Origin: Ostreococcus lucimarinus
Lineage: Eukaryota
Reading direction: 5' to 3' (one strand)
Assembly: GCA_000092065.1 (NCBI GenBank)
Contig: CP000593.1
DNA: 64,000 nt
In this document: positions 3 through 48,943 of the stretch, piece after piece
How positions within the stretch are numbered: the stretch's first letter is position 1
Layout: the number at the start of each line of letters is the position of its first letter
Notes under the pieces: generated by a model
What the model saw: only the letters and a program-made list of their open reading frames with translations
Databases searched by the model: none
What the model was told of the DNA's origin: nothing
Made by a program: the position numbers and the translations under genes

Positions 3-491
3 CGTCCGTTGATAAATAGACGTTCGAGCATGCGGTTTCAAACGCGCGCCATCGCAGCAAATATCCGAGGCGATGGATTCGTGGCCGCGAGCGTCGAGGG
101 ACGCGTAGCGGTGGAGTTCATACGCGATGAAGAGAACGACAAGCGAAAATATGCGTTCAAGTGTCATCGCAAAACCGATGACGCGAGCGTGGGTGAGATT
201 GTTTATCCCGTCCACGCGGTGGCGTTTCATCCCGTCCACGGCACATTCGCCACGGGCGGCGGCGACGGTTACGTCAATTTTTGGGATGGCGACGCTAAAA
301 AGCGACTTTTTCAGTCGCCCCGCTACCCCACCTCCATCTCAGCGCTCGCTTTCAGTCCTTGTGGGTCCTTGCTCGCCATCGCGTCTTCGTACGCGCACGA
401 AGAGCGAGAGAACAACAAGCCCGAAGACCGCGTCTTCCTTCGCGAGACGCGCGCCGAGGAAGTCACCCCGAAATCGGCCAAGACATCCTAG
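3..491 (+). CDS. BUB3: Mitotic checkpoint protein Bub3 (WD40), C-terminal part; 5' end lies outside the window
   Basis: The translation ...KYAFKCHRK...VYPVHAVAFHPVHGTFATGGGDGYVNFWDGDAKKRLFQSPRYPTSISALAFSPCGSLLAIASSY... matches the conserved C-terminal WD repeats of Bub3. The ORF is open to the window edge and its first M in the ORF track is a TTG. Confidence 0.8.
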   Translation, partial: RPLINRRSSMRFQTRAIAANIRGDGFVAASVEGRVAVEFIRDEENDKRKYAFKCHRKTDDASVGEIVYPVHAVAFHPVHGTFATGGGDGYVNFWDGDAKKRLFQSPRYPTSISALAFSPCGSLLAIASSYAHEERENNKPEDRVFLRETRAEEVTPKSAKTS

Positions 492-668
492 ACAAACGAC
501 CGACCGAACGAACGCGCGCGCGTGTCAACGCTCATCGCCAGATATTCATTCGCGCGCCGAACCTTTCGCCGAGACGCTTCGCGTCCCGCTCGCGCCGCGT
601 CCTCACTTTCCCTCGCGCGCGTCCGCCCGCGGCGCGCCCGCGGCCCGCCCGCGCCCGCGCTCGGCGTC

Positions 669-2702
669 ATGTACCGCGCGTCACGCATCCCCGCGCGCGC
701 GCGTTGGCGCATCGCGTCGCTCGCGTCGCCGCGGCGCGCGCCGTCGCCGCGTCACCGCCGCTCGCTCGTCGTCGTTCGCGCCGCGCGCGCGACGCCCGCG
801 ACGTTCGATTACACCGCCCTCGTCGCGAGCGTGCGGGAGATAAACGCGCTGTCGACGCCGGTGAAGATCGACGCGTGCGCGCAGGTGGACGCGCACTCGA
901 TGACGCTGGACGCGCGCGCGGCGGATGGACGGCGGAGCGTGCGAGTGAGTTGGCACCCGGTGACCGCGCACGTCGCGATGAGCGCGCGCGGGGCCAAGGT
1001 GGAGAAGGGGATGAATCTTAGTTTTGGCGAGAGCGCGAACGCGCTGCTCAAGGGGAAGGTGCTGCTGGATGCGCGCGTGGGGACGGCGTGGGAACGCGCG
1101 TGTCGGTTGCGATTCGGCGATAGGCCGGGAGGTGAGGCAGAGTACGAGCTGTTGTGTGAGGTCATGGGGCGGTACAGCAACGCGTTCTTGCTTGATAGTA
1201 AAAATAATGATGAAGTTTTAGCGTGTGGGTATCAGGTTGGGGAGAAACAGACGAGTGTGCGGCGATTGGCGATCGGGTACGCGTACGAGCCGCCGCCCTC
1301 GGCGCCCGGGATCGATCCCACGACCGGGGTTGAAGGGGGCGTGGACGGATGGACCGCGGTGTTGCGCGACGTCGCACGCGGTCGCAGTGGTGATATGGGC
1401 GAAGCGCGTTTGGATGAGTGCATGGTGCGCGCGTTTCGAGGGGTGTCACCGGCTTTGGCCAAGGCGTTGATTCGCGGCGCGGGCGTCGCCGATGGCGAGC
1501 GCGTCGAAACCGCGAGTGCGAGCGATTGGGTCGCCGTGTACGATGAGTTCATGCGATGGATTGCGAGCGTTTCAAGTGATGCCGACAGTGCGGGTACGCT
1601 CGCAAACGCCACGTGGTGCGAAGAGTTCGGGCAGTTGTTATTGCACCCGTCGTCCGCGGGCGTCGTCTTGCCGCCCGCCGCCGACGATTTGAGCGTTGCC
1701 GGCGGGCCGATCGGCGCTCTTTTCGGCGCTGTGTACGGCGAAGCGGGCGAAACCGACGTGTTCGAGCGCGAACGCTCGCGCATTTTACAAGCCGTGCGCG
1801 CGCGTCTGAAAAAGTTGGCGAGCAAAGACGTTGGGTTCCGCAAGCAATTAGAGGCGGCGAGCGGGCACGAAGAAATTCAACTGCTCGCCGACGCGTTGAT
1901 GGCGTACAGTTACAACTATAAGCCTGGTTCGAGCGAGCTTGAGGGTCAAGACTTCACCACGGGCGAGACAGTGATGTTTAAAGTAGATCCCGAGAAAGGT
2001 CCTGTGGGCACCGCCGAGGCGCTGTACAAAAAGACGAGAAAGCTGCGTCGCACCGCCGACGCCGTCGAGCCGCTCATCGAACAAAATGCGAGCGAGATTG
2101 AGTATTTAGAGGGCGTCGAATTTAGTATTCTCGAAGTCAGCGAGTTCAAATCGCGCGACGATTTATTGTTCATCGAGGAAATTGGCGCCGAACTCGTGGA
2201 CGGTGGATTCTTAAAGCCCACGGGCAAGGGCGCCGACGCGAAGACGCGCGCGATGGCGGCGGCGAAGAAGGGCGGCGGCGCGAAGCCGAAAACCGGTAAG
2301 CAAGCGCGTAAGCAAGAGATGATGAACGCCATTCGCATCTATACCGCGCCGAGTGGAAAGGAGGTGTACTGCGGAAGAAATAGCCGCGGAAACGAAGCGG
2401 TTTCGCTTTTCTTCGGACAAGACCAAGACGTGTGGTTTCACGTTCGCGGCGCCCCGGGCGCGCACGTCATCCTTCGCCAACAACCAGGCGAAACCGCCTC
2501 AGACGACGACATCCAATTCGCCGCCAACGTCGCGAGCTTTCATTCGAAAGTGAGAACGGGCGGCAAAGTCAACGTTTCGTACACGTCTCCTAAGTACGTG
2601 AAAAAGCCCAAGGGCGCCAGGCTCGGCATGGTCACCATCGACCGCGAAGACGTCATCGTCGGACGACCGGACGACGTCGCGGACGTCTGCGACGGGCGAT
2701 GA
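669..2702 (+). CDS. NFACT-domain protein (FbpA/Rqc2/NEMF-like; NFACT-N, coiled coil, NFACT-R/DUF814), probably organelle-targeted
   Basis: N-terminal FDYTALVASVREIN...GRYSNAFLL fits the NFACT-N pattern. C-terminal YTAPSGKEVYCGRNSRGNEAVS...FHVRGAPGAHVIL...VSYTSPKYVKKPKGARLGMV fits DUF814/NFACT-R. The ORF opens at 522 with a GTG, the first ATG is at 669, and the N-terminus is R/S/A-rich like a transit peptide. Confidence 0.7.
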   Translation: MYRASRIPARARWRIASLASPRRAPSPRHRRSLVVVRAARATPATFDYTALVASVREINALSTPVKIDACAQVDAHSMTLDARAADGRRSVRVSWHPVTAHVAMSARGAKVEKGMNLSFGESANALLKGKVLLDARVGTAWERACRLRFGDRPGGEAEYELLCEVMGRYSNAFLLDSKNNDEVLACGYQVGEKQTSVRRLAIGYAYEPPPSAPGIDPTTGVEGGVDGWTAVLRDVARGRSGDMGEARLDECMVRAFRGVSPALAKALIRGAGVADGERVETASASDWVAVYDEFMRWIASVSSDADSAGTLANATWCEEFGQLLLHPSSAGVVLPPAADDLSVAGGPIGALFGAVYGEAGETDVFERERSRILQAVRARLKKLASKDVGFRKQLEAASGHEEIQLLADALMAYSYNYKPGSSELEGQDFTTGETVMFKVDPEKGPVGTAEALYKKTRKLRRTADAVEPLIEQNASEIEYLEGVEFSILEVSEFKSRDDLLFIEEIGAELVDGGFLKPTGKGADAKTRAMAAAKKGGGAKPKTGKQARKQEMMNAIRIYTAPSGKEVYCGRNSRGNEAVSLFFGQDQDVWFHVRGAPGAHVILRQQPGETASDDDIQFAANVASFHSKVRTGGKVNVSYTSPKYVKKPKGARLGMVTIDREDVIVGRPDDVADVCDGR

Positions 2703-33628: not shown

Positions 33629-33862
33629 TTCCCGTCCGTTTTCTCGCGCGTGGGACGTCGGCGCGCGCGTTTTCGGTTCGCGTCTCGGCGTCTCGGCGTT
33701 AAAGCGCGCGTCCGCTCGCGATCGGCGCGGTCGAGCGGTCGTCGTCGCGCGCGACGCGCGTCGCGGTGCGTCGGTCGTCGCGCGGTCGCGTCGCGCGGTC
33801 GTCGTAATCCGTGTGTGACGCCTTCCGACGACAGTGATACTAAGTCACGACACGCAGACGAC

Positions 33863-33961
33863 GCGCGCAAAGTCGTATTCACCGGGGCGAAACCGCGATC
33901 GCGACGCGTGCCGAATGTATACATAAACGCGAACGACGCGCGCAAAGTCGTATTCACCGGG
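33863..33961. promoter_or_regulatory. Two copies of a 39-bp direct repeat (acgacgcgcgcaaagtcgtattcaccggggcgaaaccgc) in the CDH1/RRM-gene bidirectional promoter
   Basis: There are exact copies at ~33863-33901 and ~33923-33961. Each contains GCGCGCAAA, i.e. TTTGCGCGC on the other strand, which resembles an E2F site. Confidence 0.4.
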
Positions 33962-34535
33962 GCGAAACCGCCATGAACTTTCGACGCGCGACGTGACCTT
34001 TGGGCGCCACGCGCGCCCGGAGACGGCGCGCGCGCGTCGGCACGACGCGACGCTCGAGGACGCGGGAGACGCGCGATGTCGCCGCCGACGCCGCGCGACG
34101 TCGATCGCCCGTCCCCGCGCGCGCCCGCGCCGAGACGCGCGACGCGAGGCGACGACGACGCGGGAGACGACGGCGTCGCCGTCACGCGCGCGAATGCGAA
34201 AAATGAAAATGAAGCGAATGCGAATCGAACGGCGCGCGCGTCGACGACGCGCGAGGACGCGCGCGAGGCGAACGGGAACGATGGGAAAACCGCTCGAGAG
34301 CCGACGAGGGTGCGCGCGACGCGCGAACGGGCGATGCGATGGCGACGGGAGGGAAACATTCGGGAGATGGGCGATCTTTCAAACGGCTGGTGATTTTGAA
34401 AGATTTTTTAAACGCGAGGACGCGAAGACGCGAGGGCGATCGGGGCGCGGTGAAGGCGCGCGAGAGACTGACGAAGGCGCGAAACGTGGATTTTTAACGT
34501 CGCAGAGCGCGTCGTACGAGTCGAGCGAACGACCG

Positions 34536-38176: not shown

Positions 38177-41100
38177 TCACTTTTCCATCCTTGCCGCTCG
38201 TTTCTTTTTAGCCTTCTCTTCCTCTCGAGCGAGTTTCAACGACCTGGACGCGACGAAGCCTTCAAACGTCAAATCGCCCGTCTTCGCGATCGCCTCCTCG
38301 TCCGAATCGATGTCGTCGTCGGTGTCGTCTTGCGCGAGGATTTGCCTGCCATCGCGCCACTTTAACGTGGACTTTCGGTTGTCGATGCCGATGATCTTGG
38401 CCGTGACGTCGCGGCGAGTCTCGTCTTCTTCTTCTGACGAATATTCGGCCGTTTGCAAACGGTCGCCGGTGTCGGTGTCAAACAGCTCTCGACTTTGATC
38501 GTGGACGTTGCGAGCGACGAAAACATCGCTCCAAAATTGACGCCACACCGCATCGCCGGAGAGCGTACACGTGCGCTTATTGATGATGATCATCGCTTGC
38601 AAGATGAAACCGTATCGCTCGTCGATGGTGACGTTAATCTTCGGGGGCGTTCCTTTCCACTTTTTGACGTCGATGGGCTCGGTCCAGCCGTATTTCACCA
38701 CGCGACGGTTGTTCTCCTCCTTAAAAGCCGTCGACTCCACGTTGCGCGTCGCGATGAATCGCCGCCATCGCGACAAATGAATGGGTTTATTGAGTGTGAG
38801 CTTTTTCGTCTCCACGCTGCAATGCATGTAGGCCAAGTAGCGCATCAAATAAACAATTCCACCGCCCAACGCCGACCACGCGAGCATGTTCAAGATGAAC
38901 CAAACCGCGGGAACATTCACTATGTACGGCTGCACCGCTTCGACGGCCCATCGAATCTCGGTGAACGAAAGGTATTGCCCCGTGAATCGATCGAGAATGT
39001 CAAACGCGAGCGTCCCCGACAAAATCACTTGCGTCACCTCGAGCGTGGTGCTGTTGCGCGCCTGCGCTCGGAAAGCATCCTCTAAGTTTTTCGTCGTCCC
39101 TTCTATCGCCTCGTTGATGCGGAGCTTTCTTCGTGAGCCGATGACGGCGTTCATTTCTCGCAGAGACTCGAGATCGTTGACGCACGCCGCGATGACTTTT
39201 TCCAAGTCAACGGCGCGTCTTTGCAAGCGTTTCCACGACGGTTCCAACTGAAACAAGTCGTACAACACTTGCGACGCGCCGTCGCTCATATCCGCGCTCA
39301 ACTTTTCACGAGACGTGTCGACGTTTTCGAGCGACTCGAGCACGAACTGCTGAGTGGCGCTCAAGATCGTCACCGTCGTCGTGTGATCGGCGAGGCGCGA
39401 ACGAATGCGCGTTACGTTCGTCGGATCGATCTGATAGGTTTCAATCAACGCTCGCGTCTTCTTCAACTCGTCGTTCAGCGCGAAACAACTGCTGAAGACA
39501 CTTTTGATGAACAACGAGCGAGCTTGGAACGCTGAATATGTCGCGAGAAGCTTGTGATGACGTTCGGTGCGCGGACCAAAGACGACGACACCGCGTGAAC
39601 CAAAGACGATGACTTCTTGTTCGTTCAGGTCGTACGCGTAAAACGTCGCGCCGATGACTTGCTTGAGCTCGTTTTCGTTATCTTCACCATCCATGTACGC
39701 CGCGGCTTTCAGTTTTGGCGTCGCGCGCTCGGCGATGATGCACGTAAACTTGTCGCGATTGTCCGGCTCGCCCTTGTATGTGATGTTCAACATGGAGCGC
39801 TGACGCTCGGAAAATAAATTTCCCACCAGCGAGCTCGTGTCTTCGTGGACGTCGGAAAGTAAGCGCGCGAGTAAATCGACGCTGATATCGTTTCGAATTC
39901 GATCGGCGATGCCGTTGACGACGATGCCGTAAGTGATGGCGCCGTTTTCCCGAAAGTTGATGCCGAAAACCTCGATTTGCTGCTGCACCAAGTTACTCTT
40001 GGGCGCCCCGGTGGCGAGCAAGTCTGCCTCGACGTTTACGAATCGCGTTTCGTCGACGTCGAGGACTTTTAGCTCGGTTTTATTGTCGGCGTTGATCCCG
40101 ACCACCATGTTGAATTCGTCCTGCGTCGCGCTCGCTTCCGCGGTGAACATACCGCCCGCGACGCGGTCTCCCGTGCCGAGTTTTCTACAGAAAGAAACCA
40201 TTTCGTTCGATCCCATCGGCACGTATTCGGTGACGATGATTTTCACCGAGTCGAGCAAGATACTTTCACTCAGGCGCGGGTCGCGAATATCGCGACTACT
40301 TTGAACGGCGCCGCCGAGCACGCGTTTTGCCTTTTTGTGCCCGTTCAACGCGTTCGGTGTGAACGCATCGGAGCTCAGCATGTGCGGAGGGATGTACGGA
40401 GACGAGACGTACGGCACGTCTTCGACGTCCGTGATGGTGGAGCGGATGCGGACCCCGATCGAGGGGACGGTGAGGAAAAAATCCGAGGACTCGCGGTCGT
40501 ACCGCACCTCGAGGAGGTGACCAGCTTCGTGCACCAACGAATCTACCGACTGGCGCATCGCGCTCGTGAACCGTCCCGAGGCCGTCATCCTCTGCAAGAA
40601 TTCGCTCCCCTTCTTGGAAATCTTCAACAACGTCGAGTGATCGTACGTCTCGCTCGTCACCTTGAGCGCCGTGATGAAACCAAGCTCACGCAAATCGTCT
40701 AAATCGTCTCGTCCCTCTTCCGAGACGTTCAAATACCTCGGACACGCTCCAAATATCTTTTCTGATTTTGGCGCGTAATCGTAATCGAACACCGCGTTTC
40801 GCACGATGCCCTCGTACACGAGCACCAGGAGCGGCAGCTCGCGAATCCAGGGAGAACGTTTGTTGTTGTTGTTGTTGGAAACCGCAGACTTCGACTTCGA
40901 CTGTTTCTGAGACGCGTCGGTGTACAAACTCAGCATGTACAACAATTTCAACGCCTCGGGCGATTCCTCCATCTCCCGCTCGCGCGACTCGACTTCCCGC
41001 CGACGCCGAGTCGTGGACGAGGCGGAAGTGCTCGAGTCGGCGTCTGAAGCGCTCGAGTCCCGGGCGTCCCGGGCGTAGTGCGAAGAATCATCGTCATCAT

Positions 41101-41236
41101 CGTCATCGTCGACGCGAATCGTTGCGTCCGAATCCGAATCGTAGCCCTGCGGCGCCCCGCATTCCGCGCACGTCGCCGCGCCGCCGCGCACGACGGCCCG
41201 GCACGTCGCGCACCGCGTCGAATCCATCGTATCCAC
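38177..41236 (-). CDS. Large conserved-looking hypothetical protein (1019 aa) with N-terminal Cys4 zinc ribbon, acidic tracts and C-terminal hydrophobic segment
   Basis: It is a single long ORF with normal codon composition. CATCRAVVRGGAATCAECGAP is a CxxC...CxxC motif. D/S/E-rich linkers follow, and there is a predicted TM segment PAVWFILNMLAWSALGGGIVYLM. I could not assign it to a named family. Confidence 0.6.
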   Translation of the reverse strand: MDTMDSTRCATCRAVVRGGAATCAECGAPQGYDSDSDATIRVDDDDDDDDSSHYARDARDSSASDADSSTSASSTTRRRREVESREREMEESPEALKLLYMLSLYTDASQKQSKSKSAVSNNNNNKRSPWIRELPLLVLVYEGIVRNAVFDYDYAPKSEKIFGACPRYLNVSEEGRDDLDDLRELGFITALKVTSETYDHSTLLKISKKGSEFLQRMTASGRFTSAMRQSVDSLVHEAGHLLEVRYDRESSDFFLTVPSIGVRIRSTITDVEDVPYVSSPYIPPHMLSSDAFTPNALNGHKKAKRVLGGAVQSSRDIRDPRLSESILLDSVKIIVTEYVPMGSNEMVSFCRKLGTGDRVAGGMFTAEASATQDEFNMVVGINADNKTELKVLDVDETRFVNVEADLLATGAPKSNLVQQQIEVFGINFRENGAITYGIVVNGIADRIRNDISVDLLARLLSDVHEDTSSLVGNLFSERQRSMLNITYKGEPDNRDKFTCIIAERATPKLKAAAYMDGEDNENELKQVIGATFYAYDLNEQEVIVFGSRGVVVFGPRTERHHKLLATYSAFQARSLFIKSVFSSCFALNDELKKTRALIETYQIDPTNVTRIRSRLADHTTTVTILSATQQFVLESLENVDTSREKLSADMSDGASQVLYDLFQLEPSWKRLQRRAVDLEKVIAACVNDLESLREMNAVIGSRRKLRINEAIEGTTKNLEDAFRAQARNSTTLEVTQVILSGTLAFDILDRFTGQYLSFTEIRWAVEAVQPYIVNVPAVWFILNMLAWSALGGGIVYLMRYLAYMHCSVETKKLTLNKPIHLSRWRRFIATRNVESTAFKEENNRRVVKYGWTEPIDVKKWKGTPPKINVTIDERYGFILQAMIIINKRTCTLSGDAVWRQFWSDVFVARNVHDQSRELFDTDTGDRLQTAEYSSEEEDETRRDVTAKIIGIDNRKSTLKWRDGRQILAQDDTDDDIDSDEEAIAKTGDLTFEGFVASRSLKLAREEEKAKKKRAARMEK

Positions 41237-41463
41237 CGATGGATTCGACCGCGGAGTGACGACGAACGAACGAACGCGCGAAAACCACCGACGTCCTCGC
41301 CCGAGCCCTCAACCTGTAACATTCGCGATCGCGGATCGACGGCGTCAAGCCGCGAAGATCTGTCGCAAACCCACCATCGAGCGACGTATAATACCAATTA
41401 TTCGTCCACCTCGCCGAGTTAAGCCTCGAAATAAAGAGCATGGGCAGTCGAATGTCCGCGATG

Positions 41464-41577
41464 TTGTGCGTATGCATAAACAGTCTTCCTTAACTCAGCT
41501 GGTAGAGTGTCAGACTGTTAGGAAAAAGTCTCCGTCGAATATGACGGCTGCTCCGATAGAGATCTGGAAGCCGCGGG
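41464..41577 (+). tRNA. tRNA-Asn(GUU)-like sequence with a 41-nt insertion (intron-like) between positions 37 and 38; possibly a pseudo-tRNA or SINE head
   Basis: The cloverleaf can be drawn by hand. Acceptor TCTTCCT pairs with AGGAAGA and the discriminator is G. D-arm ACTC-AGCTGGTA-GAGT has G18G19 and an A-box-like TAACTCAGCTGG. The anticodon stem is TCAGA/TCTGG and the loop CTGTTA|A carries anticodon GTT. The T-arm GCGGG-ATCGAAA-CCCGC is B-box-like. T5 lies ~25 nt downstream. Unusual features are U1-A72 and A54. Confidence 0.4.
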
Positions 41578-41700
41578 ATCGAAACCCGCAGGAAGAGATG
41601 TGTCGACATCAAACCTTACTTTTTCCCATACCCGATTGTCCGTGATGGAAAAGCGACACGACAACACTGTGACTTTCGTCGTTTCGGGGTGACGGATAGT
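41464..41700 (+). mobile_element. tRNA-derived SINE-like repeat, copy 1 (full length with tRNA-like head)
   Basis: A ~222-nt body from gctggtagag to tatcgct is near-identical to 47434..47655. It ends in an A-rich tract (actttaaaaaatttatcgct) and is followed by T9 and a GC inverted repeat. Confidence 0.6.
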
Positions 41701-41840
41701 ACTTTAAAAAATTTATCGCTATGAGTAATAAAAATAAACTTTTTTTTTGAGTTGGGGCACCCCAACATGATAAAACCGCACATCGACGTTGATGTACCGC
41801 ATGTAAGATTTCTCCAGAACCAATCGTGTGAGTGAAGTGG

Positions 41841-42338
41841 TCAAGCCAAGCCGCGTAACTCATCTACCGTAAATTGATACTTGTCGAGACTGCGCTTCGA
41901 AGGCAGCGTGCCGCGCGCTCGGGCATTCTTGAGGCACGTCTTGCGCAGTATTCCTTTTGCGTGCTGCTTGTAATAATTGAGTTGTCTGTAGTTACCATCG
42001 CCGCCGTCCCGCTTCGGCGTATATTGAGCTCTGCTGTAGGCTGGACTCTCGTCCACGTTCTCGCGGCACGCGTGTTTCTGGCTGCGTCCAGCAGCTCGGG
42101 AGTTGAATAAGCCGTCACGCTTCTCTCTCATGTAGGCACCTTTACGTTGATGGAGCTCTCCAGCTGGAATGTCCTTTTCGAGAACTCTCACGTCCGCGTC
42201 GCCAAACGTGAAGATTGGATGTCGTGCGTATTTATGCGAGGCAAGGCGCGCTCTGAGCGAACCCGTCGTCGATCCGATGTACGTTTTGTTACATTTCGCA
42301 TTATCGCTAAACATTTCGTACACGCATCCCGACGGCAT
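41841..42338 (-). CDS. Free-standing GIY-YIG endonuclease-domain protein (homing-endonuclease/viral-like), located in a low-GC island
   Basis: MPSGCVYEMFSDNAKCNKTYIGSTTGSLRARLASHKY matches GIY-(x10)-YIG-ST..L..R...H. A downstream ...LFNS... supplies the conserved Asn region. The C-terminal 70 aa are basic. The ORF GC (~52%) is well below its neighbours (~68%). There is no RING, so it is not SLX1. Confidence 0.6.
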   Translation of the reverse strand: MPSGCVYEMFSDNAKCNKTYIGSTTGSLRARLASHKYARHPIFTFGDADVRVLEKDIPAGELHQRKGAYMREKRDGLFNSRAAGRSQKHACRENVDESPAYSRAQYTPKRDGGDGNYRQLNYYKQHAKGILRKTCLKNARARGTLPSKRSLDKYQFTVDELRGLA

Positions 42339-42521
42339 TTGTCCTGGTTACCTATCTATCCCTAAGAAAATATTGTTGCCAAAAGTGCCTCCTCCTGCGG
42401 TTTGCAGTCACATCCGAGAGACCATAGGTACGCGTATCGCTGCGTGGGCTGCAAGGTCCGGAATGTAGATACCGAACCGCCTGATTTCACACCTGGACGT
42501 TCGTGATCCGTCGAGACCTGA

Positions 42522-42710
42522 CGAAATGACGAACTTGTTTTGTCGTCCACAAATTCGTCAACCCGTCGTTCGGTGACACTTTGTGTGTACCAATGATGAA
42601 AATGACGAAATGTTAAAATATTTTAATGTTTATTTTTATTTTAGATCTATGACAAGCAACAGTGTGGACCTTTATGAAAACAGTTCGTCATTCGTCATTT
42701 CGTCAGGATC
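42522..42710. repeat. Inverted repeat pair (ctgacgaaatgacgaac ... gttcgtcat(tcgtcat)ttcgtcag) flanking an extremely AT-rich ~150-bp spacer, with a third direct copy (gaaaatgacgaaatg) inside
   Basis: The ~17-bp arms are reverse complements of each other, and the spacer is >75% A+T. Confidence 0.5.
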
Positions 42711-42772
42711 CAAACCATGGTCTTTTTGGTGTCTCGTTGAGTCTTCATATTGCAAATGTACGAATTACAAAA

Positions 42773-43069
42773 TTAGTATGAGCACCAGACGACCGCCGGC
42801 GCGAGCTCCGTCTCCCCTGTGTACCCATTGTCCTTCAGCCACTCGAAGCACCCGTCGCGGTGAATTTCCCAATAGACGCCCTTCTCGTCTCTACCTTGCC
42901 TCAGGTGGTCCTCTTCCATTGGGACCCTGTGGCCCTTTTCCTTCTTGAAGAAGTCCTTGAGCTTATTGCCGACCTTCGTCGCGCTATCTTGACCGCGCGC
43001 AGCCGCTGGCAACCACGTCTGGTATTCGATGAAGATGTCACTGTGTGCATAAAAATGACTTGCGCTCAC
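42773..43069 (-). CDS. Small ORF (98 aa) of unknown function downstream of ZNG1; it may be UTR rather than a gene
   Basis: The ORF opens with GTG and has no ATG until codon 51. Its composition is not GC-skewed (...GVYWEIHRDGCFEWLKDNGYTGE...). A TGTAA on this strand follows directly after its stop. Confidence 0.25.
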   Translation of the reverse strand: MSASHFYAHSDIFIEYQTWLPAAARGQDSATKVGNKLKDFFKKEKGHRVPMEEDHLRQGRDEKGVYWEIHRDGCFEWLKDNGYTGETELAPAVVWCSY

Positions 43070-43169
43070 ATCGGTGTGGGCTCACTATAAAGGACAAGCT
43101 TACATGTCGGAAGAGTTGCCCGAGTCCACATCTCCACCCTGTTCCGCTTCAGTGTCACCTAGAAAGACA

Positions 43170-44810
43170 TCAGACTAAGCCGTCGTTTTGAGAGGGCGCC
43201 GACTTTGCCTTTGGTTTTGCCTTCGACTTTGAAGTGGGTTGCGGCCTGATCTCCTCTTCGATCTCCTCGTCGTCGACCAAATCTTCGTCGATTTCTTCGT
43301 CGTCTTCGTCATCGACTTCGTCGTCTTCGTCTTCGTCGTCTTCGTCTAGAAAGACATCACCCATGACTGCTCTCCAGCCATCAGAACCCATTTCGAATTC
43401 TTCGTCGGTCAAGAGGCAAGAGTCCAACGTTGATTGAATTTCATCGTATTTAAGATCCTTGCCAATGAACACCAGTTCTTGTCGGCGATCACCATAAGGC
43501 CCCTCCCAGTCTTTACGAAGTTCTTGCTTTATCCCCTGTGAGCCGACCCAAGCATTTTTATTCAGCGCGGTCCATCGGCTTGATCCTTCGAGAGAGTAAA
43601 TATTACCAGCCTGACTGAAAACAATTATCAAGTCGTGGGCATCACTGAGCCACGTTACACCCTTCGAACGTAGCAGCACACCAATTTCACCTTCCCTTTT
43701 ACGGCGCTTGAGTTTCATCGCTTCTTGTCGCGCTCGAATATCTTTCACTGCACTCCAGTCTACACTTGGTGTCTCTTCATCTTTTTCTTCATCACGGTCA
43801 TCGGCCTCGAGGGAGCTGAAGAAGCGCTCGACAAATGAGCCTAAAAACCGTTTGGGATGAAAAGGTCTTCTGGCTCGGTAAATGAAAGACGTAATACCGA
43901 ACCGACTATCGTGACGTGTTTGGGAAGAACTTGGTGCAAGCGTGACCTCGCTTAAGGCTGTTTCTCTCATGCGAGCTCGCTTACAGCATGGAGACTCACC
44001 TTTGTCCCTAGCGCCGGCGCAGCATGACTTCACAGATGTTGCTTCTATCTCTTGTTCCCATGTTATGAAACCAGCAAAGTCATTCTCTTTGTAAAGTTTT
44101 GTATTGACGATTCGCGTAACGTCGATCGCGCCGTTCACAGCTTCAAGAATATCAGCACGTGAATTGAGAAGTTGTATCTGCGCTTTAATCTCGGCGAGTT
44201 GTTCGTCATCGACAGTGTCGACCTTGTTCAATACGACGACATTCGCGTACTCTATCTGTTCAGCCAACAATTGAGAGTAAGACTGCCTGTTCACAGCTGA
44301 CGCCCTGAAAGAATCAATCATGTCGAGAAAGTCACCTGCAGCGATGACCGTCACGCACGTATCCAGCCGCGCCAGTGTGCTCAAATGTTCATGCTCATCA
44401 ACGTGCGCAGCTTCATGATCGTGATCGTCCTCACAATTTGCGAAGAGTTTCGCAATTTCCGCCGGTTCCGACACTCCTGATGCCTCTACGATCATGTAGT
44501 CAAAATTGCCACTCTTGGCCATGTCCCCGATTTGTTTTACAAAGTCTCCGCTCAACGAACAGCACACGCATCCGTTCTGCATGGCAACCACCTCGTCGCT
44601 CTGCAGCAAAGCGGAATCATCGATTAATTTTTTGTCGATGTTCAACTCCGCGACGTCGTTCACGACGACGGCACACCGAAACTTTCCGTTCGCGTCTCGC
44701 TTAGCTTCGAGCACGCGTTTCAGAGTTGTCGTCTTCCCAGCGCCGAGGAACCCGCACAGCGTTGTCACCGGCAATCGATTATGATTGGCGATTGCGGCGG
44801 GTGTGGACAT
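43170..44810 (-). CDS. ZNG1: COG0523/CobW-family GTPase (ZNG1-like zinc metallochaperone) with acidic C-terminal tail
   Basis: PVTTLCGFLGAGKTTTLKRVL is the P-loop. The CxCC metal-binding motif is present in ...MQNGCVCCSLSGD.... A CobW_C domain and a D/E-rich tail follow. The ATG is at 44810. Confidence 0.85.
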   Translation of the reverse strand: MSTPAAIANHNRLPVTTLCGFLGAGKTTTLKRVLEAKRDANGKFRCAVVVNDVAELNIDKKLIDDSALLQSDEVVAMQNGCVCCSLSGDFVKQIGDMAKSGNFDYMIVEASGVSEPAEIAKLFANCEDDHDHEAAHVDEHEHLSTLARLDTCVTVIAAGDFLDMIDSFRASAVNRQSYSQLLAEQIEYANVVVLNKVDTVDDEQLAEIKAQIQLLNSRADILEAVNGAIDVTRIVNTKLYKENDFAGFITWEQEIEATSVKSCCAGARDKGESPCCKRARMRETALSEVTLAPSSSQTRHDSRFGITSFIYRARRPFHPKRFLGSFVERFFSSLEADDRDEEKDEETPSVDWSAVKDIRARQEAMKLKRRKREGEIGVLLRSKGVTWLSDAHDLIIVFSQAGNIYSLEGSSRWTALNKNAWVGSQGIKQELRKDWEGPYGDRRQELVFIGKDLKYDEIQSTLDSCLLTDEEFEMGSDGWRAVMGDVFLDEDDEDEDDEVDDEDDEEIDEDLVDDEEIEEEIRPQPTSKSKAKPKAKSAPSQNDGLV

Positions 44811-44867
44811 GATGTACGGCGATCGACGTCTCCGCGCGCGAACGAGCCGAAGAGGCGTCGCGAAGTG

Positions 44868-45142
44868 CGGCGATGCGCGCGCGTCGTGCACGTGTCGACG
44901 ATTCGCGTCGTGCACGTGTCGAGGATCGTCGTACGCGACGCCCCGCGAAGCCCATCACGGATCGCGTCGCGACGCGCGTCGTAAACATGTCGACACGCAT
45001 GTCGACATATTTACCCACGCGCGTGTACGCATTGAACCCCGTGATGCATCTATATACGAAAAACGTCTCGACGCACATGTCGACATATTTCGACATATCC
45101 AAGTACCACCGAGATGTGTCGACACTGCGGCGGATGTCGACA
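44868..45142. promoter_or_regulatory. Cluster of GTCGAC-centred palindromes (5x [A]TGTCGACA[T], plus a 2x 23-nt tandem cgtcgtgcacgtgtcga(c/g)g) in the ZNG1/ZIP bidirectional promoter
   Basis: ATGTCGACA occurs at ~44987, 45000, 45078, 45117 (as TGTGTCGACA) and 45135. Two copies extend to CATGTCGACATATTT. The tandem repeat with CACGTGTCGAC lies at ~44875-44925. Confidence 0.55.
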
Positions 45143-45368
45143 TTTTGTCGTTCGCGAGTCGTGACTTATAAACGACCGCCCTCCATCGCGCCGGTTCGGT
45201 TCGTATGCCGCTTTAGTTTGTGCGCAGCCGCACTTACCGACGCCGGCGAAGACGACGACGACGACGGAAACGATGACGAACGAAAACACGAAGAACACGA
45301 AGACGACGATGCCGCCGCGCGAACGCGCACGCGGTGCGAGGACGGTCGAGCGACGACGAGGGCGAACG

Positions 45369-46802
45369 ATGCGCTGCGCGAGCGCGCTCGGTGGTGGCAT
45401 CGCGATCGTCGCGAGCGCGCTCGCGCAGCGCGGCGCGCACGCGTCCGGCGCGCACGCATTCGAATGGGCTGGAATCTTTGAGACGCCAGAGAATGAATAC
45501 GTGTGGCAGGCGCAAAAGGTGGCCGATAAGTACGCCGCCGATACCATGAAAATGGTCATCTACGACGAAATCGCCGCCGGACACGACGAGCTCGAAGCCC
45601 GCGAGGATAGCGGTGATACCGCAATCGGGGGAGCTTGTACGACGGCTAAGATACGAGATAGTGTTTTGACACCTGATAGTGGGTGTGTCAACCTTGAATT
45701 TGACAACACCTGGCACACGACGCCGTTTAAGATTAATACGACTGGCATCGACGCGATCTCAATCTTCGCTGAGCACGTTCCCACCGAGTTCGAGCGCGAC
45801 GCGCACTATCTCAAGGACCTCCACGGAGATGACGTGGTGCCAAAAGCTTCACTTCCCGAAGCATCCACCGTGAGCGAATCGAAATCAAAACCGTGGGCCA
45901 ACGCCATTGGGGCGGCAATTATCGTCAATATCGTCACACTTTCTGGTGTGGTCTTTCTCATCCCGAGTATCGCTAAGAAGCAGAAAGCGTACCCTGAAAC
46001 TGTGAGTTGCACAATTAACTCGTTTGCCGCCGGCGCACTTCTTTCGGCTGCGTTTTATCTGATGTTCTACGAAGCCACGCATTTAATCAAACCTGCTGGC
46101 TCGGATGAGGCAGAGCAGACCGCATGGTGGGCTTCCGCTTCTATCTTCGGCTTTCTCATGGCCTACTTCATCGACTTTGGTATCTCTGTCGTGTTCCCAA
46201 CTCTTGGAAATACAGCGAAGACAACCGATGCGGAACTTGCAGTCAAAGGCGCTCAAGATGACTGTGATACTTGTACTTGTAACTCACACAAGTATCGCGT
46301 TCGAAGTGGTATCATTCTTGGAGATTTCATGCACAACCTAGTGGATGGTATTTTCATTGGCTTCGGCTTTCTGAACTGCGACAGTACCATGGGATGGTCG
46401 ATCACCGCCGCGACCGTCTATCACGAAATCGCTCAAGAGCTTGCTGACTACTTGGTGCTCGTAGACCCCTTCCAGGGCGATCTCGCGCCGTTGCCGACGC
46501 TGACTTTAAACTTCGTTTCCGGCTTGAGTGTCATTCTTGGCGTCCTCATTAGTGTTGGATCGGGAAATAACAACGACTTCTGGCATGGACTGCTGCTCGC
46601 CTTCGGTGCTGGAGTCTATCTGCAAATCGCCGCCGCAGAGTGCATGCCCCGAGTATCAGTGAGCGCCACTTCACCTCGTCTTCGCGCGACGAGCATTCTC
46701 ACCTTCATCGTCGGCGTTGTTGCCATCAGTCTCGTGCTCCTCAACCACAAGCATTGCACAGGCGGTGGCGGTGGCGGAGACTCACACGCACACGCGCACT
46801 AA
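45369..46802 (+). CDS. ZIP (Zrt/Irt-like) family metal transporter
   Basis: MRCASALGGGIAIVASALA is a signal peptide. Multiple TM segments follow. HNLVDGIFIGFGF and YHEIAQELADYLVL are variants of the ZIP TM-IV and TM-V motifs HNFxDGLAIG and HEIPHELGDF. The C-terminus has a His-rich stretch HKHCTGGGGGGDSHAHAH. Confidence 0.75.
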   Translation: MRCASALGGGIAIVASALAQRGAHASGAHAFEWAGIFETPENEYVWQAQKVADKYAADTMKMVIYDEIAAGHDELEAREDSGDTAIGGACTTAKIRDSVLTPDSGCVNLEFDNTWHTTPFKINTTGIDAISIFAEHVPTEFERDAHYLKDLHGDDVVPKASLPEASTVSESKSKPWANAIGAAIIVNIVTLSGVVFLIPSIAKKQKAYPETVSCTINSFAAGALLSAAFYLMFYEATHLIKPAGSDEAEQTAWWASASIFGFLMAYFIDFGISVVFPTLGNTAKTTDAELAVKGAQDDCDTCTCNSHKYRVRSGIILGDFMHNLVDGIFIGFGFLNCDSTMGWSITAATVYHEIAQELADYLVLVDPFQGDLAPLPTLTLNFVSGLSVILGVLISVGSGNNNDFWHGLLLAFGAGVYLQIAAAECMPRVSVSATSPRLRATSILTFIVGVVAISLVLLNHKHCTGGGGGGDSHAHAH

Positions 46803-46906
46803 TGAGAGCGGTAAAAAAATGTCAATTACTATCAAATCAAGTTGTGGCAAACACACCCACGGCCACTGACGGAGATCTATTTTTCAAGCTAGAGGATCAT
46901 ATAAAT

Positions 46907-46911
46907 TGTAA
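46907..46911 (+). promoter_or_regulatory. TGTAA poly(A)-signal-like motif downstream of the ZIP gene
   Basis: aaattgTGTAAatcg lies ~105 nt after the stop at 46802. Confidence 0.35.
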
Positions 46912-47025
46912 ATCGAAACGCTCTTCGTAATTTACGGCACCTGTTCCTCGATCTCCTGGCGAACATCGATGAATTATTTCGATAAGATGTCCCAGATGTT
47001 ACCCACACCACGGTACTTGTGAAGC

Positions 47026-47137
47026 TTAATCCAGATACGCGCGCACGCCTTTCTGAAGCATGGTCGGTACCTCGGCTTTCAACTTGTCTGGGAGCGTCGC
47101 GTCGGCGTCCTTGACCTCGCGCAGAAAATCGAGCACC
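47026..47137 (-). CDS. Small hypothetical protein, exon 2
   Basis: It encodes ...VLDFLREVKDADATLPDKLKAEVPTMLQKGVRAYLD*. This frame is reached only by removing a 53-nt intron. Confidence 0.35.
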
Positions 47138-47190
47138 CTATTGGTGGAGAACTGTCAGGGAAGGATCCAAGGTGGCGGCATTTGATACAC
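47138..47190 (-). other. Putative 53-nt intron (GTGTAT...CTGAC...AATAG) in the small hypothetical gene
   Basis: The donor is CT|GTGTATC and the acceptor is ccaccaatAG|G. CTGAC lies ~14 nt upstream of the acceptor. The length of 53 nt restores a long ORF across the two flanking frames. Confidence 0.35.
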
Positions 47191-47369
47191 AGGTTGCGCC
47201 AGGCTTTGTTAGACAGCAACGGACTCGATTTTACATCATCCGCCAGTATTGCAATTCCTACACGCTTCCCATTTAGCCAGTGCTTGGGCTCCTCGAATTG
47301 GTCTGTTTCGGGATTATACAGACTGAGCATCTCTGGGGTCAAATACTCGTCCCACACGGAGGCGTTCAT
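47191..47369 (-). CDS. Small hypothetical protein, exon 1 (from first ATG)
   Basis: It encodes MNASVWDEYLTPEMLSLYNPETDQFEEPKHWLNGKRVGIAILADDVKSSPLLSNKAWRN. Its composition is moderate in GC and coding-like. The ORF opens upstream at a TTG. An acceptor-like tttacAG lies just 3' of repeat copy 2. Confidence 0.35.
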
Positions 47370-47433
47370 CAGGTGCCCATCGAGTTCCTTGTATTGCTTC
47401 AATCTCGTCGCGGTATCTCTGTAAACAATTTTG

Positions 47434-47655
47434 CTGGTAGAGTGTCAGACTGTTAGGAAAAAGTCTCCGTCGAATATGACGGCTGCTCCGATAGAGATCT
47501 GGAAGCCGCGGGATCGAAACCCGCAGGAAGAGATGTGTCGACATCACACCTTACTTTTTCCCACACCCGATTGTCCGTGATGGAAAAGCGACACGACAAC
47601 ACTGTGACTTTCGTCGTTTCGGGGTGACGGATAGTACTTTAAAAAATTTATCGCT
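47434..47655 (+). mobile_element. tRNA-derived SINE-like repeat, copy 2 (5'-truncated, begins in the D-loop)
   Basis: It is ~98% identical to 41478..41700. It lacks the first 14 nt of the tRNA-like head. It is followed by a 12-bp palindrome, CCCCCATGGGGG. Confidence 0.6.
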
Positions 47656-47770
47656 GTGAGATTCACCCCCATGGGGGGAGCTCGGCTTCCCTGATTTTTT
47701 TGTCACTTTTTCACGACGCCGCGAACCCCTCGTCCCGAACTCCGAGACGCGACGCGAGACATCCATCCCA

Positions 47771-48943
47771 TCACACGAGTCGCCCCCCCGCGAGATAATC
47801 GGCGACTCGCACGACGCGCGCGTTCGCGTCGAACGCGCCCGCGTGGACGTCGTCGTCGCCCGCCGCGAGCGCGGCGCCTTCGTCGTCGAAATCCACCTCG
47901 TCGAGCGCTCGGTAGCTCTCCATCAACGCGGGATCTTTGGCGGCCATGAGCTTTAAATCTTCCAACACGCGGTCCAGATTGACGTCGTCGACGAAGTTTC
48001 CCGCGAACGCCACCGTGCAATCGAGGTTTCGAACGGCGTGCGGCGAGCCGCCCGGCACGAAAAGCACCTCGCCCGGGCCAAGATCGACGTCCCATCGGCG
48101 CGCGCCGAATTCACGCGGGAGCGGTAACATTCCCATCTCTTCTTGTTCCTCCAACGGTGGCATCGCGGGATCGAGCGTGCCGCGCGACCAGCTCGGCCGT
48201 AAAAACGCGAGCGATTCGCGCGAGAAGACGGTCCATCGCTTCGTGCCGCGCACCACGGCCATGAAAAAGTGCCCCTGCCACTGATCGACGTGCAGGGACG
48301 ATCGCGTGTTCTTCGCGGCGACAAACAAGCTCGGCCACGACCGTGAAAATGCCGTCAATCGCATCGTGCGCTGCATGTAATCGTGTGCCACGTACGCCGG
48401 TACGCGCACGCTCTCCGACAACGACGGCAGCTTGAGCGGAATCGACGTGTCGTACAAGTAACTCCCCGCCCCTCGATCGTCCACGACTTCCGCGAAAAAG
48501 TCCTTTAAATCCAAAACGTCCGTCACCTCGCACGACAGCGTCGCGCGTCGGTGACCATCCTTCCTCGTGACGGCGACTTTTTTATTCCCGGCGCGCCGCG
48601 TCAACCACGCGCACGTCTCGCCGTCCGCGCCGTCCTCCGTCAGCGCGCTCCCGAGCCCCTCGATCACGACCGGGGTATCCGTGGCGACGTATTCGAGTCG
48701 AAAACGTCGCGGCGTGAGATCGCGCGCGTGCACGCGCGCGACGTCGCGTCCCGTCGTCGTCGGTTTTTCGACACCCGAATCTGCGGCGGCGGCGGCGGCG
48801 AGCGTCGCGCGCGCGCGCTCGACGCGCGCGACGATCGCGTCGACGTACGCGCGACGACCGTCGTCGGTCTCTCGGGCAGCGCGCGCGGCGAGATCGGCGC
48901 GCTCGACGTCGAGGCGCGCGATCTCTTCGTCGAAAAGCGTCAT
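47771..48943 (-). CDS. JmjC-domain (cupin-like 2OG/Fe(II) oxygenase) protein
   Basis: ...SSLHVDQWQGHFFMAVVRGTKRWTVF... (Hx(D/E) region) and ...GEVLFVPGGSPHAVRNLDCTVAFAGNF (distal His) fit the JmjC double-stranded beta-helix. The ORF starts with ATG. Confidence 0.75.
   Translation of the reverse strand: MTLFDEEIARLDVERADLAARAARETDDGRRAYVDAIVARVERARATLAAAAAADSGVEKPTTTGRDVARVHARDLTPRRFRLEYVATDTPVVIEGLGSALTEDGADGETCAWLTRRAGNKKVAVTRKDGHRRATLSCEVTDVLDLKDFFAEVVDDRGAGSYLYDTSIPLKLPSLSESVRVPAYVAHDYMQRTMRLTAFSRSWPSLFVAAKNTRSSLHVDQWQGHFFMAVVRGTKRWTVFSRESLAFLRPSWSRGTLDPAMPPLEEQEEMGMLPLPREFGARRWDVDLGPGEVLFVPGGSPHAVRNLDCTVAFAGNFVDDVNLDRVLEDLKLMAAKDPALMESYRALDEVDFDDEGAALAAGDDDVHAGAFDANARVVRVADYLAGGRLV

Follow-up and report, generated by a model that had tools for sequence, protein, structure and literature searches.

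A Probable Polymorphic Island at a Native tRNA-Asn Gene of Ostreococcus lucimarinus, with Candidate Spliceosomal-Type Introns in Wild Alleles of the Gene

Introduction

A 64,000-nt stretch of the Ostreococcus lucimarinus genome (NCBI GenBank assembly GCA_000092065.1, contig CP000593.1; hereafter the window, numbered from its first letter) holds a tRNA-Asn(GUU) gene and, on the far side of a 5.7-kb segment, a second copy of most of that gene. Why should one locus carry this tRNA twice, once whole and once without its 5′ end? The preliminary description, made from the letters of the window and its open reading frames (ORFs), had read the pair as a tRNA-derived short interspersed element (SINE) or as a tRNA gene that had seeded a retroposed partial copy, with a local segmental duplication as the fallback. 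Comparison with related contigs, referred to here by our labels (L001 and so on), leads to a different answer. The two 228-nt copies are probably the junction repeats of an inserted, polymorphic island at a native tRNA-Asn gene. The fallback came closer to this than the retroposition reading did; it failed to recognize the segment separating the copies as what had been inserted.

The Direct Repeat and Its Insert

Base-by-base comparison of the two repeat copies (Table 1) gave 225 identical positions out of 228 (98.7%), with mismatches at 41612, 41629 and 41721, which bears out the earlier report of a second copy lacking the first 14 nt at about 98% identity. The right copy is without tRNA positions 1–14 and so without A-box positions 8–14. 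ARAGORN called no tRNA in it (47433..47660) with introns allowed, and on its own it is predicted not to be a tRNA gene. A repeat search found the 228-nt pair to be the sole long, high-identity repeat of the window, the remaining repeat families being 60–87% GC-rich, low-complexity matches and one 48-nt pair at 94%. The shared tail that had been described is present and measures 128 nt. Its supposed A-rich end is absent, as the unit finishes in ...TTTATCGCT(A/G)TGAG, and neither a poly(A) or A-rich end nor a target-site duplication was found around the right copy. The tail (41598..41725) returned only noise from Rfam at E ≤ 10, with no sign of a structured RNA or small nucleolar RNA, and folded no better than its shuffles (z = +1.3).

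The site occurs both empty and occupied. No insert was present in O. tauri (L037) or in another clade (L039), where the JmjC gene is the immediate neighbor of the 1028-aa gene. A single unit without an insert was also found in five contigs of wild O. lucimarinus (L017, 526 kb; L018; L020; L032; L036), and in these the right flank of the window's right copy is joined straight to the single tRNA gene. Other wild contigs, including L004, L006 and L021, had the insert arranged as in the window. Identity of the wild O. lucimarinus contigs to the window was 98–99.9%. By this comparison the insert, designated island A, appears to be the derived state and a present/absent polymorphism in wild O. lucimarinus. 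Throughout ~680 kb of related contigs every unit lay at the tRNA-Asn locus, with full units standing as junctions between inserts. When Joint Genome Institute (JGI) metagenomes were scanned for a 23-mer from the tail, six contigs were recovered, five of them at the tRNA-Asn locus and one (L035) with a partial copy.

Table 1. Features of the tRNA-Asn locus and its surroundings in the window.
Feature	Position	Strand	Basis or remark
1028-aa gene (left neighbor)	38177..41263	-	Pfam MJ1567/MJ1566_N; next to tRNA-Asn in all clades examined
tRNA-Asn(GUU) gene	41484..41597	+	Rfam RF00005; ARAGORN with introns; exon fold
Exon 1	41484..41520	+	tRNA positions 1–37
tRNA-type intron	41521..41561	+	41 nt, between positions 37/38
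Exon 2	41562..41597	+	tRNA positions 38–73
insD site	41499..41500	+	D loop C16/U17; filled in 18/21 wild contigs, empty in window
insT site	41588..41589	+	T stem 64/65; empty in window; right-copy equivalent 47523/47524
T5 run	41620..41624	+	22 nt after G73; read from sequence
Left repeat copy	41498..41725	+	tRNA positions 15–73 with intron, plus 128 nt of 3′ flank
Right repeat copy	47433..47660	+	5′-truncated tRNA-Asn from G15, plus equivalent 128-nt flank
Island A	41726..47432	.	5.7-kb insert; composition, empty sites, outgroups
Mobile-module fragment	41726..43044	-	GIY-YIG-like ORF plus last ~90 codons of a DUF5906 (primase/helicase-like) gene
GIY-YIG-like ORF	41841..42338	-	165 aa; Pfam GIY-YIG E = 0.009, below cut-off
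98-aa ORF	42773..43069	-	C-terminal DUF5906 remnant; near-identical to last 90 residues of the 733-aa protein of L011
CobW/COG0523-type GTPase gene	43170..44915	-	Pfam cobW 6e-41, CobW_C 1.5e-18; acidic C-terminal tail
ZIP-family metal transporter gene	45273..46802	+	Pfam Zip 1.2e-21
107-aa ORF	47079..47402	-	Next to right repeat; ORF list
JmjC/cupin gene (right neighbor)	47771..48943	-	Directly adjoins tRNA locus in empty-site genomes

Composition and Gene Content of Island A

Island A has a GC content of 51.8%, compared to 61.7% and 66.2% in its flanks. The window as a whole is GC-rich (62–66%), with a dip to 50–55% between about 38 and 48 kb, and its ORFs encode eukaryotic proteins, including mitochondrial carrier, RRM, JmjC and WD40 proteins. 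Exact protein matches place it in O. lucimarinus CCE9901. At the left end of the island, no more than 5 nt separate the left repeat from the beginning of homology to a GIY-YIG/DUF5906 module. The segment 41730..43044 is 94% identical to a block in contigs L011–L016, where it runs on into a full 733-aa DUF5906 gene. The 165-aa ORF of this module carries the UniRef name 'GIY-YIG domain-containing protein', its 90% cluster has 898 members, and a paralogue of identical length lies on another CCE9901 chromosome. Neither the GIY-YIG nor the DUF5906 protein had close relatives among IMG/VR viral contigs. The remaining cargo comprises the CobW/COG0523-type GTPase, a putative zinc metallochaperone judging by its COG0523 family, the ZIP-family transporter, and the 107-aa ORF (47079..47402), for which no Pfam or PHROGs match was found.

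Several further observations concern the island and its edges. The 3′ end of the CobW gene, encoding the acidic tail (43172..43346), differs in length from one wild contig to another and is a point at which many metagenome contigs end. L011–L016 are long-read contigs from another Ostreococcus lineage, in which the GIY-YIG and DUF5906 module is recurrent and its upstream contexts differ from contig to contig. There it is sometimes an inverted pair around bZIP and ZIP genes, and it adjoins a gene block for an FMN-dependent dehydrogenase, GTP cyclohydrolase II and CobW, so that metal-related neighbors are seen again. G/C palindromes stand just outside the left (TTGGGGCACCCCAA, 41752..41765) and right (CCCCCATGGGGGG, 47670..47683) repeat copies. 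At these positions the genes for the GIY-YIG-like and JmjC proteins, respectively, both on the minus strand, have their 3′ ends, for which the palindromes may be signals.

The tRNA-Asn Gene

ARAGORN at default settings made no tRNA call in the window; with introns allowed, it called 41484..41597 as tRNA-Asn(gtt), the intron being 41 nt long and placed at position 38. Rfam RF00005 matched the same interval on the plus strand with 49 bits against a gathering score of 29, placing a 42-nt insertion in the anticodon loop. The minimum free energy (MFE) fold of the joined exons was a perfect cloverleaf with the loop CUGUUAA, a U1-A72 pair, and G73, and its T loop read AUCGAAA, i.e., with A54. The cloverleaf, anticodon loop, G discriminator and 37/38 insertion of the preliminary description were thereby recovered, and its downstream T5 run was located and measured. 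The start that it gave for the feature (41464) lies 20 nt upstream of the tRNA itself. U1-A72 and A54, which it had listed as non-canonical, are indeed there and are normal for the lineage, being found in prasinovirus-like contigs and in another Ostreococcus clade.

By its location between positions 37 and 38, the 41-nt intron is of the canonical eukaryotic type, with the tRNA splicing endonuclease as its putative remover, and in the fold of the pre-tRNA it pairs with the anticodon region. The T5 run is likely the RNA polymerase III (Pol III) terminator of the gene. In other alleles and clades, T7 or T8 runs lie 0–15 nt past G73.

A contig from a distant Ostreococcus clade (L050) carried a tRNA-Asn gene adjoining a homologue of the window's 1028-aa gene, with exons identical to the window's at 73/73 positions. 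Its intron is diverged and 39 nt long, a T8 run immediately follows G73, the flanks are diverged, and its neighboring JmjC protein is only 57% identical to that of the window. Because the exons are identical despite the divergence of intron, flanks and JmjC protein, purifying selection on the exons is indicated, and we predict that the window gene is a functional native gene under such selection and not a pseudogene. A viral origin was also considered, as prasinovirus-like contigs (L027–L030) hold an intron-less, near-identical tRNA-Asn that shares its D and anticodon arms, AUCGAAA T loop, U1-A72 and G73 with the window gene. This origin was rejected since another Ostreococcus clade has identical exons at a syntenic site. 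In O. tauri, the syntenic spot (L037) is occupied by a permuted tRNA-Asn(GTT), which is a published gene (Table 1 of PMC3978253). The nuclear genome of O. lucimarinus has only 44 tRNA genes (PMC3673656), and because this total is so small, the window gene may be the sole tRNA-Asn gene of the species.

Two sequence elements of the gene were also noted. The hairpin CCGTCGAATATGACGG (41532..41547) inside the canonical intron was kept in all intron variants (window, island B copy, and L050), and a T-to-C change in L050 makes its stem longer. The 37-nt motif CGTCCACCTCGCCGAGTTAAGCCTCGAAATAAAGAGC (41403..41439) lies 45–80 nt upstream of the tRNA and is nearly identical in L050, where neighbor proteins are only ~57% identical. 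It may belong to the promoter of either the tRNA or the divergent 1028-aa gene.

A Second Island and Rearranged Arrays

A 3.8-kb insert unrelated to island A, designated island B, was found at the equivalent site in L031 and L040–L046. Island B is GC-rich (57–72%), unlike the low-GC island A. Its main ORF encodes 487 aa without a recognizable family; the AlphaFold model of this protein (predicted local distance difference test score, pLDDT, 36) was unusable and was not used. At the left border of island B, the chromosomal tRNA 5′ end runs into a tRNA body whose exons are identical, whose intron sequence differs, and which has a T7 terminator of its own. At the right border stands a truncated standard unit, which again starts GC|TGGTAGAG, the breakpoint at G15. 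The sequence ahead of GC|TGGTAGAG is ...CGCCACCTC at island B and ...AACAATTTT at island A. These borders are what an element with a partial tRNA in its attachment site would leave.

The two islands also occur together. L040 contained B alone, L041 and L044 had the order B-unit-A, and L042 and L043 were deletion derivatives without the GIY-YIG ORF. L047, an 8-kb contig whose JGI sample also yielded the empty-site contig L017, showed the order A-B′-A with two unique junctions, also without the GIY-YIG ORF. In L010, the ZIP end of A leads through a unit into the GIY-YIG end of A.

Proposed Origin and Alternative Explanations

For the specific route of integration, the chances are about evenly balanced. 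A circular DNA carrying a 5′-truncated tRNA-Asn copy would recombine with the chromosomal gene, and the insertion would leave the 228-nt direct repeat in an attL/attR layout. The left copy would complete an intact tRNA gene, and the right copy would be the displaced duplicate, starting from G15 in the D loop. Once present, the repeats would permit pop-out, tandem stacking, and reshuffling by homologous recombination. We infer both the circular intermediate and the kind of recombination, site-specific or homologous; a single recombination with a circle is the simplest event that makes this layout. That two unrelated inserts have one breakpoint in common speaks for a defined site or enzyme, and the GIY-YIG-like ORF is a candidate nuclease. 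L010 and L047 show the joint order expected of a circle, which tandem arrays or, for L010, a chimera would fit too.

Several points weigh against the island and its proposed entry. Pfam, PHROGs and PDB sequence searches found no recombinase (integrase or transposase) among the ORFs of island A or B. The 128-nt extension of the repeat past the tRNA exceeds typical att cores, and such a shared flank fits plain homologous recombination equally well as it does a site-specific enzyme. L047 could be a tandem array instead of a circle, and L010 could be an assembly chimera through the repeat. The partial unit copy in L035, a 1.3-kb contig, lies beside a tRNA-Gly gene. In addition, the contigs were reached through protein look-ups, so that the sample is not free of bias, and a metagenome contig may combine more than one haplotype.

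Among the alternatives, capture during break repair survives best, and we regard it as unlikely. On this account no dedicated element is involved: a double-strand break in the D loop would have been repaired with ectopic DNA, e.g., from the low-GC outlier chromosomes, the 228-nt duplication would be a by-product of repair synthesis or template switching, and homologous recombination would have made the later arrangements. The missing recombinase agrees with this, as do the illegitimate junctions at short homologies in L042, L043 and L047 and a cargo of ordinary cellular genes plus a truncated mobile module. What it leaves unexplained is the exactly identical breakpoint (GC|TGGTAGAG) in two unrelated inserts, together with the complete replacement tRNA body and terminator of island B, which resemble those of attP-bearing elements, and the junction contigs, which are compatible with a circle or tandem array.

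Endonuclease homing, a variant of the island explanation that names the enzyme, seems to us decidedly improbable. Here, the GIY-YIG-like protein would cut island-free tRNA-Asn alleles near the D loop in zygotes, and the island would be copied in by recombinational repair; the free-standing GIY-YIG endonucleases of T-even phages are an analogue. A gap of 116 nt separates the ORF from the left repeat, copies of the module recur both within single Ostreococcus genomes and across them, and the breakpoint is fixed and common to two inserts, all of which suits such a process. However, the GIY-YIG match is below the Pfam threshold (E = 0.009), island B is without a GIY-YIG gene, the ORF has been lost from L042, L043 and L047, and homing has no need of a target duplication.

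The reading of the pair as a tRNA-derived SINE or a retroposed partial tRNA transcript did not survive and is very improbable. It drew on the tRNA-related head with an unrelated tail, the 5′ truncation of the right copy, and the near-identity of the copies. The window has only two copies, at one locus, however, and they bracket a polymorphic 5.7-kb insert that is absent in outgroups and in some wild genomes. The right copy has no A-rich end or target-site duplication and is missing part of the A box, the common tail runs ~100 nt past the T5 terminator, and full units were confined to the tRNA-Asn locus in the ~680 kb of related contigs and the one JGI metagenome scan. The right copy also retains the tRNA-type intron and is therefore not a copy of a mature tRNA. 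Finally, a mis-join in the reference assembly, at which two CCE9901 accession sets for identical neighborhood proteins might hint, is scarcely credible given that independent metagenome contigs from several projects (L004, L006 and L021 among them) span both copies and the island.

Insertions in Wild tRNA-Asn Alleles

Besides the junction repeats, the wild contigs revealed insertions in the tRNA-Asn exons themselves. All of these lie outside the window sequence, and they were tallied over the 21 wild contigs that show a complete tRNA-Asn gene. At least one exon insertion of 87–104 nt was present in 20 of the 21; the reference strain has none. An insertion in the D loop (insD; 100 nt, C16|U17) was the only one in 17 contigs, an insertion in the T stem (insT; 87 or 104 nt, positions 64|65) the only one in two, and one contig had both and one neither. 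The contigs inspected for insertion alleles (L001–L008, L017–L021, L024, L031–L034, L036, L040–L046) include all four presence/absence combinations, and the insD sequence was identical in all 19 carrier contigs.

Both insertions start with GTAAGT, end with CAG, and carry ACTGAC 34 or 22 nt before the 3′ end. The ACTGAC branch motif has been reported in 87% of the introns outside chromosome 2 of O. lucimarinus that are confirmed by expressed sequence tags (PMC2483917). The 5′ site GTAAGT differs from the usual non-chromosome-2 consensus, GTGCGTG. No T4 run occurs in insD or insT. Two other identities were tried for these insertions and rejected. An introner-like repeat family is not supported, as neither insD nor insT had a further copy across the window and 680 kb of related contigs. 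For a bulge-helix-bulge (BHB) intron, no motif appeared in the MFE folds, and the start of neither insertion is able to pair with the beginning of the exon downstream.

Similar interruptions were found in further tRNA genes. The tRNA-Asn gene is permuted in a sister Ostreococcus clade represented by L039 (9500..9945, plus strand), L048 (4340..4700, plus strand) and also L049. In L039 and L048, the T loop is split after G57 (57/58) by a 150- or 115-nt GTACGT...CTGAC...CAG sequence, of which only the splice signals are conserved between the two, the exons being identical. L039 has an extra 110-nt GTAAGT...CTGAC...CAG sequence between U33 and G34 that is absent in L048, and its anticodon reads GUU only with this sequence removed. 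The reconstructed L039/L048 tRNA formed a perfect cloverleaf and was called Asn(gtt). L035 (1265 bp; minus strand, 729..436) holds a tRNA-Gly(GCC) gene with a 107-nt intron at the canonical position and a G1.G72 mismatch as encoded, where removal of a GTACGT...ACTGAC...CAG sequence supplies C72 and A73. In its 3′ part, and for ~90 nt beyond it, that sequence is copied from the insT, acceptor strand and tail of tRNA-Asn. The telomere-like sequence TTAGGGTTTAGGG lies downstream in L035.

Conserved exons beside fast-diverging insertions argue that the genes are functional and the insertions removed, and the signals point to the spliceosome as the putative remover. On balance, we lean somewhat towards the view that Ostreococcus nuclear tRNA genes (Asn and Gly) carry true, young, polymorphic spliceosomal introns that would require splicing to yield the tRNA, judging from sequence signals. 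The insD site is 2 nt from the island breakpoint at G15; given insD at the breakpoint, intron gain and island entry at tRNA-Asn might be linked. Our literature searches turned up spliceosomal-type introns as precedents in U6 small nuclear RNA (snRNA) genes but none in tRNA genes, and no description of islands at tRNA genes in Ostreococcus; their coverage was incomplete, and both negatives are absence of evidence only.

Other Features of the Window

Identical GIY-YIG-like and JmjC proteins each appear in two CCE9901 accession sets (ABO99431/ABP01176 and ABO99433/ABP01174, respectively), and the reference assembly seems to hold the tRNA-Asn neighborhood twice. The 94% identical 48-nt pair is a direct repeat (33852..33899 and 33927..33974, 75 nt apart) upstream of the RRM-protein gene, where an offset in the alignments of wild contigs suggests copy-number variation.

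Discussion

The arrangement at this locus is that of a bacterial-style island in a eukaryote, and the SINE reading is wrong. As in the tRNA islands of bacteria and archaea, an intact tRNA gene stands at one border and a truncated copy with the 3′ part of the gene at the other. The composition is atypical, and the cargo, for metal uptake, is plausibly adaptive. Empty sites occur in relatives and in the population, one site receives several islands, and these stack in tandem. The differences are that the genome here is a eukaryotic nuclear one with no integrase gene found, and that the repeat starts in the D loop, includes the tRNA intron, and runs 128 nt past the gene. The likeness to tRNA-derived SINEs stops at a tRNA-like head with an unrelated tail, whereas the two copies here lie at one locus, with neither an A-rich or long interspersed element (LINE)-type end nor a target-site duplication. 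tRNA genes also serve as landmarks for the insertion of mobile DNA in yeast (Ty1/Ty3) and Dictyostelium (TRE). Those elements, however, go in on one or other side of the gene, come with their own reverse transcriptase and integrase, and leave no part of the tRNA gene duplicated, features of which none is seen here.

For the wild insertions, the nearest comparisons are the mRNA-type intron that interrupts the Schizosaccharomyces pombe U6 snRNA gene (reviewed in PMC5855946) and the introner elements of Micromonas (PMC4540971, PMC3879977). Shared with these are GT..AG ends and a branch motif in a structural RNA gene normally read by Pol III, as well as presence/absence polymorphism in natural populations. 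The host gene here is instead a tRNA, the insertions are single-copy, and their splicing is predicted from signals. Permuted and BHB-intron-disrupted tRNA genes are known from Ostreococcus, Micromonas and Cyanidioschyzon (PMC3978253). They come from the same organisms, the syntenic tRNA-Asn of O. tauri is permuted, and the window's 41-nt intron is likewise of the canonical type. The window gene is colinear, however, and the wild insertions bear spliceosomal signals without BHB complementarity.

In bacteria and archaea, genome plasticity is typified by islands that enter at tRNA genes and leave a fragment of the gene duplicated. A like layout in a free-living eukaryote suggests similar accessory-genome dynamics in picoeukaryotes. 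In this abundant ocean alga, the insert is present in some genomes and absent from others, forms tandem stacks and has genes for metal uptake. The tRNA-Asn locus also offers a marker for tracking ecotypes, and zinc scarcity is an obvious hypothesis. If the intron reading is true, spliceosomal-type introns that segregate as presence/absence alleles in the tRNA genes of a single species would add a new class of interruption to those known in such genes and would provide a natural system for watching intron gain in progress, and the intron lead would then matter more than the island.

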